Virus record (IMG/VR): IMGVR_UViG_3300042319_001458
Location: 1 to 59,772 of that record
Strand: one strand, 5' to 3'
DNA length: 59,772 nucleotides
Source: a virus
Lineage: Duplodnaviria > Caudoviricetes
Shown here: in pieces, positions 34,554 to 37,514 of the stretch
Layout: the number at the start of each line of letters is the position of its first letter
Position numbering within the stretch: the first letter of the stretch is position 1
Notes under the pieces: generated by a model
The model's input: the letters and a program-made list of their open reading frames with translations, nothing else
Told to the model about the DNA's origin: nothing
Database searches by the model: none
Made by a program: the position numbers and the translations under genes

Positions 34554-34726
34554 CAGCGTTTTCCTTTTGTATGGCCGGCACGAGCAGCAGCCACGTTATC
34601 TACTAAATTCGGATAAGGGCGGCCTGCAGCTCGCGCCTTAGCTTTTGCTATCTTAACACCTTTTGCGCTTAAAGCCTTGCTCTTTGCGTCTTTTGGTGCA
34701 TCTTTTTCCCAAAACGGCTTGCTCAT
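34553..34726 (-). CDS. Small basic protein
   Basis: MSKPFWEK...AKAKARAAGRPYPNLVDN. Confidence 0.7.
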   Translation of the reverse strand: MSKPFWEKDAPKDAKSKALSAKGVKIAKAKARAAGRPYPNLVDNVAAARAGHTKGKR

Positions 34727-34995
34727 TAGCAGTCCCACTTGCGCAATGATTTATTGATTCGACTGTTTGGATCTGCAGCTTTTGCAGAACCAGTTAATTT
34801 CTTTTTCATGCCCGTCATGCGAGCGCAAAATGAAGAGCGGCGACCTGCTGCTTTATCGCTTGTAGCAGCCTGCTCTTTAGAAACTGGAGGTTTTAAATTA
34901 TGGCCTTCACGCTTTGCAGAAGCGCGCCCCTTGGCGTTTAAACCGCCTTCAGGATTCTTTCCTTCTTTGCGCGTCCAAGCAGGGCTTTTAGCCAT
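34726..34995 (-). CDS. Small basic conserved phage protein
   Basis: AWTRKEGKNPEGGLNAKGRAS...RRSSFCARM.GM...DPNSRINKSLRKWDC; GGAG SD. Confidence 0.8.
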   Translation of the reverse strand: MAKSPAWTRKEGKNPEGGLNAKGRASAKREGHNLKPPVSKEQAATSDKAAGRRSSFCARMTGMKKKLTGSAKAADPNSRINKSLRKWDC

Positions 34996-35007
34996 CTCTG
35001 TCTCCAA

Positions 35008-35283: not shown

Positions 35284-35751
35284 TTACGGCGTTAGGTTGA
35301 TAGCTTGAACGTATTCAACGGTCAGAATAGCAGCGCCAGTCGTTACCGAAATAGCGTTAGCTGCCTTGACGTAGATGATGACGTCGTCTGCGCCAACATC
35401 AACCCAATTTGCAGTTCTCGTTGCGTCAGTTCCCGGCGAAGCGGCAAAAAGACCAACAGCACTGAGAAGGAAATTGGCAGAAGCAACGAGCTCAGTAGAC
35501 GTTGCAGACGTTCCAACATTCAAACCAGCAGACGCGCCACTAAATGCTACTGAAACAAGCGCCGTGATTGAGGTAATCTGGCTACCAGCTGGGATGCAAA
35601 TAGTAGTTGCAGCAGCAGTTGCAGACTGTGTGATAGCAACAGACTGCGCCATTTTTACATATCCAACATTCTTAACAGAACCAGCCGTTGAGCCAGTCGT
35701 GTCTAAAACGTCGCCGGCCTGTATAGGGCCGGTAAAAGTTGTAGTTCCCAT
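35284..35751 (-). CDS. Putative capsid decoration/cement protein
   Basis: MGTTTFTGPI...IPAGSQI...VG......G...LTVEYVQ; downstream of the major capsid gene. Confidence 0.7.
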   Translation of the reverse strand: MGTTTFTGPIQAGDVLDTTGSTAGSVKNVGYVKMAQSVAITQSATAAATTICIPAGSQITSITALVSVAFSGASAGLNVGTSATSTELVASANFLLSAVGLFAASPGTDATRTANWVDVGADDVIIYVKAANAISVTTGAAILTVEYVQAINLTP

Positions 35752-35830
35752 ATAATCCTCCTGCACAAGGTTTCGTCACGTCGTCTGTGCAGCGTCCGCT
35801 TGGTCGGTCGACGTAACTGATGTTCCAAGG
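35752..35830 (-). ncRNA. Candidate multi-pseudoknot structured RNA in the decoration-gene leader
   Basis: Four interleaved complementary pairs in about 70 nt, ending at the GGAGG SD (see findings). Confidence 0.55.
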
Positions 35831-36480
35831 CTTCTATTGCCAGAATGCTTTCTGATGTAGTCCGCACCCGCCAATAAAACTTCTACATTATCCTTTGCCT
35901 GTCCCAACATGCTATTACAAGAATAGCACAATAGTTCACGCACGGCACCTGTTTCATGACAATGGTCTACTGCTAGATCTTTTTTAGTTCCGCGATAATC
36001 CATTGTAGTCTCAGGCTGATGGCAAATAGCGCATTTACCATCTTGCTTGCGATACATTTCGGCGTAATCACCAATTGAAATGCCATAATAGCGCATCAAT
36101 CCGTAATGACGCCGTTGGTCCTTACTCATTTTATAGCCGATAGAACCATCTTCTTTCAAAACTCTTTCGGCTTTATGATCAGCCATCTTCAAGTTAGAAA
36201 TCTTAAGATTTTTCGTATCGTTATCTATAAAGAACACAGATCTATCTGGCCATTTGCCGTAATAAAGAAGCCATGCCGCCTGAGCTCCGGATATTTTTCT
36301 TCCACGATATGTGATGGAATAATAATCCTTGCCATTTTGCATTCGCTGCCAAACGCCGGCGCGTTGACCAACTTGAGCCCTGGAACTTGTTGACACTTTC
36401 CAGGTAAAAGAACCTGTTTCAGCATCATAATCCAGAACCTCTGATAGACACTCAAATGTCAGATCAACATTTTTTACCAT
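35776..36480 (-). mobile_element. Free-standing homing-type endonuclease: degenerate HNH domain fused to an endonuclease VII domain
   Basis: C-terminal YGIS..DY..M...Q.GKCAIC...LAVDHCH.TG.VR.LLC..CN..LG; N-terminal YD.ETG.F.W...AWL.YYG.WP...I.NL; AT-rich, own promoter. Confidence 0.85.
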
Positions 36481-36514
36481 TGCAAAATCCCCTTCTCTTT
36501 TATTAGAGTTAGAG

Positions 36515-36560
36515 ATTATACTTTAGATAAATATAATGTCAATCTGACATTTATATTTAT
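36515..36560 (-). promoter_or_regulatory. Consensus sigma70 promoter of the endonuclease, overlapping a palindrome
   Basis: TTGACA (36542-36537), 16-nt spacer, TATAAT (36520-36515); inverted repeat ATAAATATAATGTCA/TGACATTTATATTTAT. Confidence 0.75.
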
Positions 36561-36602
36561 AACTCGCTGCCTTCTTGTTCAGATACAGCGAGTTATTTTA
36601 TA

Positions 36603-37514
36603 TTAGGTTGGGAAAGAGCCAAATATTGAACGCCAATTGTAATAGCCAAAACTATAACGTTCATAGCCCTTCACCAAAAGATTGTCAGTTACGAAATCGA
36701 CTTGCATGTCAGTTTCGAACTTTACGCGCTCCATGTAGCTCAAGCCATCGATGTTCGTTAGCAAGAACCAAGCAGATGCAGACGTCAAGAAGTCGTTGAC
36801 CATGTAGCCTTCAGGCAAGCCGCCTGCAGTCATCATGATCGCGTTAACGTCATTGTCTGCCGTGCCAGGACGCAGTTCCGTCTTCGTCAGACGAATTGCG
36901 GTTGGCTCGAGAGCTGGCGGAACAACAAGACGACGACCGCGAGCAAATACTTTAAGACCAGCTTGGTCTTTAAAGTTTGTTCTGATCGAAATCATTGCGT
37001 TAAGCAGCGTGCTCTCATTGAGGTCCACATCAACTGCAGGACGGTTTGCAACCGTGCCGCCATCGATCGGATGGTTTGTTGCAATAAGAGAAACGCCGTC
37101 ACCGCCGACAGAAGCATTATACGTCGTTGCCGTGTTGAGCACGTTAGCGCCGTAGATTTCTTTCGTCTGCTGGAACGATTCAATGAGGCCGAGGTTCGAC
37201 GGCATAAACTGTGACTTATACAGGTTATCGTCGATGGCTTTACGCGTGATCGAATAGCCGAGAGCAATTTCAGTATGCTCTTGGTTATAGACGTAGCGTT
37301 CGCCTGCGGCGTTATCAAACGACGTTTGAGCGCCTTCGGTCTTTAACTGAGCAAGACCCAAGAAACGCATTTCCGCAGTGCGCTCGAGCGCCATTTTGGA
37401 ATCGTGTTTCGTGAAGATCTTGTCGTATTGAGATGGGATCATCTCATACTTGCCTTCAATCCCGCGGAGACCGGGGAGGAGAAGGTCTTTGATGGCAGAG
37501 AGATTAACAGCCAT
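36603..37514 (-). CDS. Major capsid protein
   Basis: 303 aa; LLPGL...K.EG....D...Y.HTEIALGYSIT.KAI.DNLY...D.D..T.NL..K..ERYSFG..NWR; biased codon use; downstream of the scaffold. Confidence 0.9.
   Translation of the reverse strand: MAVNLSAIKDLLLPGLRGIEGKYEMIPSQYDKIFTKHDSKMALERTAEMRFLGLAQLKTEGAQTSFDNAAGERYVYNQEHTEIALGYSITRKAIDDNLYKSQFMPSNLGLIESFQQTKEIYGANVLNTATTYNASVGGDGVSLIATNHPIDGGTVANRPAVDVDLNESTLLNAMISIRTNFKDQAGLKVFARGRRLVVPPALEPTAIRLTKTELRPGTADNDVNAIMMTAGGLPEGYMVNDFLTSASAWFLLTNIDGLSYMERVKFETDMQVDFVTDNLLVKGYERYSFGYYNWRSIFGSFPT

Follow-up and report, generated by a model that had tools for sequence, protein, structure and literature searches.

Pseudoknots at ribosome-binding sites (RBSs) are known as operators, as in the leader of the E. 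coli alpha operon, a nested double pseudoknot associated with S4, in rpsO (S15) and in the leader of T4 gene 32. Among self-cleaving RNAs, HDV-like ribozymes, examples of which occur in phages, follow the strand order P1-P2-P3-P3'-P1'-(P1.1)-P4-P4'-P2' and carry their catalytic C in J4/2, and the hammerhead is a three-way junction with a core of CUGANGA and GAA and a UH cleavage site. Exonuclease-resistant RNAs (xrRNAs) pair their 5' end with a junction strand and their 3' flank with a hairpin loop. The Mu-gpT-DE motif is a conserved RNA, described in Rfam, that lies downstream of Mu-like gpT major-head genes. Motifs similar to the one described here have earlier proved to be riboswitches, ribozymes or ribosome-binding operators.

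Here we analyze a double-pseudoknot RNA of ~70 nt on the minus strand (35829..35761) of a complete 59,772-bp virus record with terminal repeats, the whole of which is referred to below as the window; the genome holds a single copy of the element. Its four helices follow the order A-B-C-A'-C'-D-B'-D'. It shares with Mu-gpT-DE the niche just downstream of a Mu-gpT-like head gene, the window capsid protein giving a weak match to Pfam Mu-like_gpT. The Rfam model of Mu-gpT-DE does not match the element, a comparison that covers location and model match; the term gpT is absent from the main text of PMC5737381.

Architecture of the element

The features of the locus are as follows.

35829-35825 with 35803-35799, minus strand: helix A, 5 bp
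35817-35809 with 35783-35775, minus strand: helix B, 9 bp, one of them G-U
35807-35805 with 35798-35796, minus strand: helix C, 3 bp
35792-35787 with 35766-35761, minus strand: helix D, 6 bp, with a 7th (A-U) and an 8th (G-U) pair in the window copy
35825..35829, minus strand: A 5' strand, the 5' tail of the element
35799..35803, minus strand: A', inside the loop of hairpin C
35787..35792, minus strand: D 5' strand, the junction strand
35761..35766, minus strand: D', the 3' tail of the element
35775..35783, minus strand: B', which holds the HNH stop codon TGA (35776-35778)
35757..35762, minus strand: Shine-Dalgarno (SD) sequence AGGAGG, overlapping D' by 2 nt, with the ATG at 35751
35284..35751, minus strand: cement/decoration gene, 155 aa, assigned by fold match and 38% identity to the DSL-LC04 cement protein
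36603..37514, minus strand: major capsid protein gene, 303 aa (phrog_371 major head protein, E 3.1e-12)
35830..36599, minus strand: HNH/EndoVII homing-endonuclease cassette, delimited by contig joins in HNH-less relatives
35776..36480, minus strand: HNH ORF, 234 aa (Endonuclease_7 of Pfam, E 8e-23, and HNH_3)

Helices B, C and D form a three-way junction, to which the tails add two pseudoknots: one between the 5' tail (A) and the hairpin C loop, the other between the 3' tail (D') and junction strand D. The two pseudoknots would lock the junction into a rigid knot. Linkers within the junction comprise 1 nt (A) from B to C, 3 nt (ACN) from C' to D and 3 nt ((A)GA) from D to B'. A' is joined to C' without a spacer and a single nucleotide lies between C and A', an arrangement that, going by standard pseudoknot geometry, would be an H-type pseudoknot with a one-nucleotide deep-groove loop. 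Since the loop between B' and D' has 4-8 nt with which to span the 9-10 bp of helix B, it must be taut. Few unpaired positions are invariant, and these are confined to the junction, with the addition of a U two nucleotides before D', which forms an invariant column in the 48-sequence alignment and is present in 122/126 sequences of the larger set.

The letters given in the earlier note for 35830..35749 on the minus strand proved exact on rereading. Its description of D' as running into the SD is likewise accurate, the end of D' at 35761 overlapping AGGAGG (35762-35757).

Compensatory changes in homologous loci

The likelihood of such an arrangement arising by chance was estimated on the single sequence, where crossing stems of at least 9 and at least 7 bp appeared in 6 of 3000 dinucleotide shuffles of the window sequence. 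The nested minimum-energy fold, in which pseudoknots are not modelled, is ordinary (z -0.34); this is expected, because nested folding ignores pseudoknots, and the value is uninformative on them.

A search of IMG/VR with the 155-aa downstream protein alone yielded 234 relatives. From these the best 80 loci were taken, and addition of GenBank record MW202675.1 brought the set to 81 loci and 47 distinct sequences, or 48 with that of the window. The element lies immediately 5' of the start codon in all 81 of these protein-selected loci (best 80 of 234, plus MW202675.1). When the 48 distinct sequences were aligned with MAFFT, 98.3% of the 1104 cells held standard pairs and double-sided changes were present in 14 of the 23 pairs; none of 500 shuffles matched the alignment in any of five measures. 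As a control, partners were slid by 1-3 columns, which left only 21-42% pairing.

Within this 48-sequence set, helix B shows double changes in 8 of its 9 pairs, with 98.1% of cells paired, and 82 distinct sequences of this helix exist among related loci. The third pair of helix A is AU in 18 sequences, GC in 14 and UA in 13. The middle pair of helix C is CG in 39, AU in 5 and UA in 4, with zero breaks, and its outer pair becomes U-A in locus L261. Helix D is nearly invariant in the protein-selected set.

A second sample was drawn with a loose 16-base core pattern run across IMG/VR, which found at least 120 stretches, 80 of them used; the pattern fixed part of the 5' strand of D and left its 3' strand free. 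The covariance model employed here (R1) was built from helices B and C only, D being absent from it. Full-length R1 matches of 45-92 bits were obtained in 77 of the 80 sources (window plus 79 loci), with a partial match at chance level in L099 and no match in L102 and L114. In the resulting alignment of 71 distinct rows, 96.3% of cells were paired overall and 99.3% in helix D, the first pair of which is CG in 43 rows, AU in 19, UG in 3 and UA in 2; two inner pairs of D are swapped jointly in 4 rows. D and D' occur as five unrelated complementary sequence types. Helix A is not alignable by position because the A-B loop varies, and it was therefore examined by a complement test: 128 of 129 distinct sequences have a perfect 5-nt complement of A' in the 24 nt ahead of B, versus 4.1% of shuffled segments, and A/A' too fall into five complementary sequence types.

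An all-versus-all, APC-corrected mutual-information scan was performed on 125 sequences, in which A and D' had been placed by complementarity beforehand, and B and C had not; the top ten scores all correspond to proposed pairs. The stems contain 57 G-U as opposed to 6 A-C combinations, which indicates that the folded strand is the transcribed strand. The cis RNA with two crossing pseudoknots put forward in the earlier note is thus backed by compensatory changes in all four helices of homologous phage loci, every helix being supported in this check. On sequence grounds the element, with each helix maintained by compensatory changes, is a conserved structured RNA, and its fold as a sense-strand cis RNA almost certainly exists.

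Genomic setting and distribution

The contact between fold and RBS is tight: in 125 of 126 distinct sequences, an SD-like 4-mer starts -2 to +2 nt from where D' ends. The distance from capsid stop to start codon runs from 112 to 935 nt (81 loci). We note that the nucleotides flanking D' (window 35761-35769, 35757-35760) co-vary (C-G 81, U-A 20, U-G 16, C-A 5 and A-G 4 of 126), and that the next pair outward is U-A in 119/126, pairing being excluded while D-D' stands. This covariation may reflect a weak alternative hairpin that masks the SD, or a clade effect. As a mechanism, an SD-masking hairpin around D' was dropped, being of 2-4 bp and missing from the mutual-information scan.

The AF2 model of the 155-aa protein encoded downstream is a jellyroll of moderate quality (pLDDT 74.7), for which the best Foldseek match was 7eel_H, the capsid of cyanophage Pam1 (E 2.8e-4, TM 0.53); further matches include the GP4 capsid and the KHP40 trimeric cement protein (8h89_J; 7dou_4 among the matches). 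The protein also has 38% identity to the one annotated as cement protein in phage DSL-LC04, and this identity, together with the jellyroll matches, agrees with the decoration-type gene that had been proposed from the window alone. With a jellyroll fold and a gene directly after that of the major capsid protein, the product is, as modelled, a cement/decoration protein. The window capsid protein, for its part, is 87.8% identical to the annotated MCP of MW202675.1.

Family-wide, the downstream ORFs measure 68-215 aa and are otherwise unrelated, sharing the start M..TTF(S/T)GP(V/I). By phmmer, 92 of 121 match the window protein; the other 29 comprise 26 with the N-terminal motif or a close variant and 3 miscalled starts. 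In loci L087-L199 and L206-L285, the shared N-terminus reads M..TTF(S/T)GP(V/I)..NGF, and some proteins continue with GNxTG repeats. The N-terminal coding sequence was considered as a part of the RNA element and rejected, since third codon positions vary freely, which indicates that the motif is conserved at the protein level. Two genes downstream (34726-35007, minus strand), a 93-aa ORF matches phrog_4689 (E 7.7e-32) among PHROG families of unknown function; the matches involve C-terminal parts only, including the ends of 450-928-aa profiles, and the ORF looks like a widespread C-terminal module.

Hundreds of aquatic phages have kept the element. It follows a co-oriented gene for a capsid-protein homologue in all 124 distinct sequences with enough upstream DNA (2 more lie at contig ends), with identities to the window protein from 33% to 99%. 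A second capsid clade was sampled with the capsid protein of L088 (33% identical to that of the window) as the sole query, yielding at least 598 relatives, of which 80 loci were used. R1 matches 29 of these 80 at E<1e-3, and roughly ten more diverged copies were recognized by reading or parsing (L235, L241, L248, L262, L275, L281, L258, L272, L277 and L285), which makes roughly 39/80 loci with the element. In the 20 distinct sequences parsed (L275 having been read solely by eye), helix D is ACATGC/GCATGT (12) or TCATGC/GCATGA (8), with 6/6 pairs in 20/20, and C is CAG/CTG in 13, CGG/CCG in 5 and CCG/CGG in 2. On the R1 alignment, this clade shows double changes in 17 of 18 counted pairs, and its D pairing of 78.9% is due to 3'-end register slips in about ten rows. 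The remaining loci of the clade have a plain hairpin-SD-ATG arrangement before a gene with another N-terminus, or endonuclease ORFs. We also observed that in the second clade the element accompanies the TTF-type N-terminus, and that it is absent before genes starting MSQTTW(S/T)GPL or M..DDLWLG.

Two cultured phages carry clear copies. In Pelagibacter phage HTVC023P the element (L286:2991-3068; 37 bits, E 1.9e-8) lies right before gp41, and in DSL-LC04 (L288:2954-3030; 33.8 bits) right before the annotated cement protein. In each phage the four helices are complete, with changed letters, and the junction nucleotides stay the same: D is GUAUAG/CUAUAC in HTVC023P and UAGUAG/CUACUA in DSL-LC04, where the closing pair of B is U-A. 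A weak variant (8.5 bits) was recognized by eye in HTVC027P, and R1 finds no match in Roseobacter phage CRP-901. The latter has a 140-nt spacer (L287:2903-3044) with a terminator hairpin, followed by a gene starting MATSTFSGPI; the fold parse fails there, and the spacer may hold a different or strongly diverged element. With blastn, the 81-nt element matched nothing in the phage collection; relatives were reached via proteins and the covariance model. Four MAG contigs (L202-L205) contain the element, three of them assigned to Opitutae and one to Aestuariivirga. Two of these, L203 (58,587 bases) and L205 (61,008 bases), have the length of phage genomes, and the binning is either a host hint or an artefact.

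These data bear on the idea of an aptamer or riboswitch-like RNA, in which a ligand or ion held in the junction would stabilise D-D' and tune access to the SD. The invariant junction nucleotides and a 3' pseudoknot strand that adjoins or overlaps the SD recall pseudoknot riboswitches such as preQ1-II and SAM-II, and the weak D'-flank covariation described above allows for an SD-masking mini-hairpin. However, the mutual-information scan (125 sequences) shows no alternative helix, and the mini-hairpin would consist of 2-4 bp. The element is found on phage contigs only, always before one structural gene, the 4 genome-collection matches all being on MAG contigs of which the two full-length ones are phage-sized, and metabolite control of a cement gene has no obvious rationale. 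We consider such a role unlikely.

The spacer upstream of the element has been invaded in the window. The earlier reading of an inserted endonuclease with its ORF tail in the element is corroborated by HNH-less contigs and by the position of the stop codon: the HNH ORF runs 55 nt into the element, and its TGA (35778-35776) lies inside B'. RNA-library contigs (two libraries) of HNH-less near-relatives join 35829 to 36599, one of them with 1 mismatch in 182 nt, which defines the cassette as 35830..36599 with its right edge at the first base of helix A; in the HNH-less relatives, a 39-nt hairpin segment replaces it. Among the 81 protein-selected loci, an HNH gene stands between capsid gene and element in 10, always upstream of A, and insertions between the element and the ATG number 0/81. 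In the window and 7 of the 10 loci, HNH frames with identities of 33-97% cross A, B, C and D and end at one shared stop position in B', so that the last 18 codons of the window HNH gene are borrowed from the RNA element. The locus shows homing endonucleases settling beside an ultra-conserved RNA element and taking its sequence as the tail of their ORF; the HNH gene is a later, secondary insertion outside the mechanism.

The presence of such divergent HNH genes at the same adjoining spot, together with that of GIY-YIG-like ORFs (recognized by eye) in the same spacer of other clades, would be in line with conservation at the level of DNA only, the element being a homing target or recombination joint and its helices incidental. 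The probability of this is practically negligible, given the compensatory changes in all four helices, the G-U over A-C excess that marks the transcribed strand, and the identity of the HNH-plus and HNH-minus cores (window versus L037). Moreover, use as a homing site can itself result from conservation of the RNA.

Several further observations were made in the spacer. A perfect sigma-70 consensus (TTGACA-16-TATAAT, 36542..36515, minus strand; 12/12) lies within the cassette, between the capsid stop and the HNH start; judging by these letters, the endonuclease seems to come with a promoter of its own, from which the element and the cement gene would be transcribed as well. At L088:3660-3745, in the distant clade, a promoter-like TTGACG-17 nt-TAAACT comes after the capsid terminator, at ~12 nt from helix A, and the element may there stand at the very 5' end of the primary transcript. 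A promoter right before helix A was considered as a general feature and rejected in the window's clade, where a hairpin ends 3-8 nt upstream. Loci L210, L222, L233, L249 and L255 contain, ~90 nt past the capsid stop, ORFs reading MPYK..GIYKIVNK..YVGQSQ, which by eye look like GIY-YIG homing endonucleases. Endonucleases of different types have a hotspot in this region behind the capsid gene.

Most loci that lack an HNH gene have, 3-8 nt ahead of A, the end of a terminator-like GC hairpin and its U-rich run. Such a hairpin with its U-rich linker is what could be expected if the element were a barrier at an mRNA end: a cut in the linker would leave a new 5' end buried in helix A and shielded from 5'-end-dependent RNases or, alternatively, the element would stop 3'-to-5' decay into the capsid message. 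The element does begin at a paired base, and a junction whose two tails are both in pseudoknots broadly recalls exonuclease-resistant RNAs. A simple hairpin would nevertheless suffice for this purpose, the invariant junction and fixed SD contact would be left unexplained, and both the window and L088 elements are preceded by promoter-like sequences rather than by processing sites. We hold a barrier function to be quite unlikely.

The element could also represent a new class of small self-cleaving ribozyme, which would split the capsid (or HNH) message from the cement message and create a defined 5' end beside the SD. Its compactness, double pseudoknot and loops near minimum length point in this direction, as do invariant unpaired nucleotides restricted to the junction, the lack of a match to known Rfam families, and a phage-borne, intergenic position like that of many twister, hammerhead, pistol, hatchet and HDV-like examples. 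On the other hand, no known catalytic core is present, CUGANGA/GAA being absent by reading and no Rfam ribozyme model matching at E ≤ 10, and the 0-2 nt spacing to the SD would be unneeded. The HNH frames that cross the element to the stop in B' argue mildly against fast constitutive cleavage upstream of that stop, and RNA-library contigs that bridge capsid gene, element and cement gene weakly so, since these contigs may include DNA. On balance, self-cleavage has a low probability.

Possible roles and relation to known RNAs

The reading that we favour, with a probability of approximately 0.45, is that the element acts in cis as a structured leader that controls translation initiation of the cement gene, possibly as an operator. 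At the end of helix D, the rigid knot would keep the SD unpaired and present it to the 30S platform, and would insulate the RBS from its upstream context, whether this is a terminator hairpin or an endonuclease gene that has been inserted. The knot could also offer a docking or operator site to a highly conserved partner, candidates being the ribosome, a repressor and protein S1. Such control would keep the supply of cement in step with that of capsid.

The fixed contact with the SD, the upstream-only insertions and the resumption of homology at A tie the element to the RBS of the cement gene, and not to the capsid gene; the invariance of this 0-2 nt contact favours a role in translation. The junction is kept across SAR11 and freshwater hosts and beside capsid proteins that are 33-43% identical, which points to a very conserved partner, and the position of the element suggests that this partner is the ribosome. 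Indeed, an RNA of ~70 nt that has kept four helices and a junction while the capsid protein fell to about a third identity argues for a strongly conserved partner or chemistry.

Some observations weigh against the translational reading. Helix D takes in only 0-2 nt of the SD, so that a simple on/off logic cannot be discerned. Relatives that combine the same capsid protein with another downstream N-terminus have a plain terminator-SD-ATG, which indicates that the element is optional and that basic expression can do without it. Ribozymes and aptamers are just as likely to have invariant nucleotides at the junction of a tight double pseudoknot, and the terminator-like hairpin 3-8 nt upstream in most HNH-less loci would fit a role at an RNA end too. 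That the element is the first member of a new phage-only catalytic or ligand-sensing RNA class (self-cleaving ribozyme or aptamer) appears possible from its sequence features, if unlikely; to our knowledge, the known ribozyme and riboswitch folds include no counterpart in which a 5' tail pairs with a hairpin loop and a 3' tail with a junction strand.

The element is abundant, with at least 120 pattern matches in IMG/VR and, by the 80-locus sample, presence in about half of the second capsid clade (at least 598 members), and its conservation spans freshwater phages and the pelagiphages of SAR11. Its occurrence in the cultured phages HTVC023P (SAR11) and DSL-LC04 makes it testable at the bench. 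Whatever its natural role, it is a compact natural module directly at an RBS.

Rfam 15 (4227 models) gave 0 matches over the whole window at gathering thresholds. At E ≤ 10, a 2-kb scan placed nothing on the element, and a 121-nt scan returned osmY alone, at 9.5 bits versus a cut-off of 46.9 and on the opposite strand; a scan for tRNA and tmRNA found none. The element had been claimed to match no described family and to differ in topology from HDV-like, pistol and twister ribozymes, and both statements stand: no Rfam family was found, pistol and twister included, and the HDV strand order is different.

Our literature searches found no description of the double-pseudoknot motif. The closest object in terms of data is the set of 8,495 unnamed 'DNAVirus_X' candidate structured RNAs from IMG/VR intergenic regions reported in PMC10690425, which share with the element both data source and kind of object. 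The available part of that paper, in which the T4 gp32 leader pseudoknot is also mentioned, makes no mention of a capsid-cement intergenic motif or a double pseudoknot, and the element may be listed without analysis among the 'DNAVirus_X' models of its supplementary list. The available part of 10.64898/2026.09.22.753630 contains nothing relevant to the element.

HDV-like ribozymes are alike in being compact nested double pseudoknots of ~70 nt with a 3-bp helix and minimal linkers. Their strand order is different, however, since A' of the element lies inside hairpin C and its D is not a hairpin; no HDV-type Rfam model matches at E ≤ 10 and no catalytic C could be assigned. With respect to the hammerhead, the junction strands of the element are A, ACN and (A)GA, and there is no Rfam match. 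CUG-like D sequences were considered as a hammerhead core and rejected, other subfamilies carrying unrelated letters there. The Rfam models of twister, twister-sister, pistol and hatchet give no match at E ≤ 10.

The xrRNAs of flaviviruses are also three-way junctions locked by two pseudoknots that use the 5' and 3' flanks. With the xrRNA fold taken as commonly described, the arrangement in the element is mirrored, and there is no Rfam match. The preQ1-II, SAM-II/V and guanidine-III riboswitches resemble it in having a 3' pseudoknot strand beside or over the SD and conserved core nucleotides; they differ in topology and have no Rfam match, and the element is restricted to phages and to one gene.

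The pseudoknotted RBS operators share with the element a pseudoknot at the RBS; theirs acts in cis at initiation of the regulated gene, as that of the element would, and that of the alpha operon is also double. Helix order and sequences differ, and no model of this group matches the element. Each of these operators binds a known protein and takes the SD or start codon into its structure, whereas the element ends just before the SD. We rate it as a new RNA family, of the general kind of pseudoknotted cis elements at RBSs and with a fold topology unseen elsewhere.
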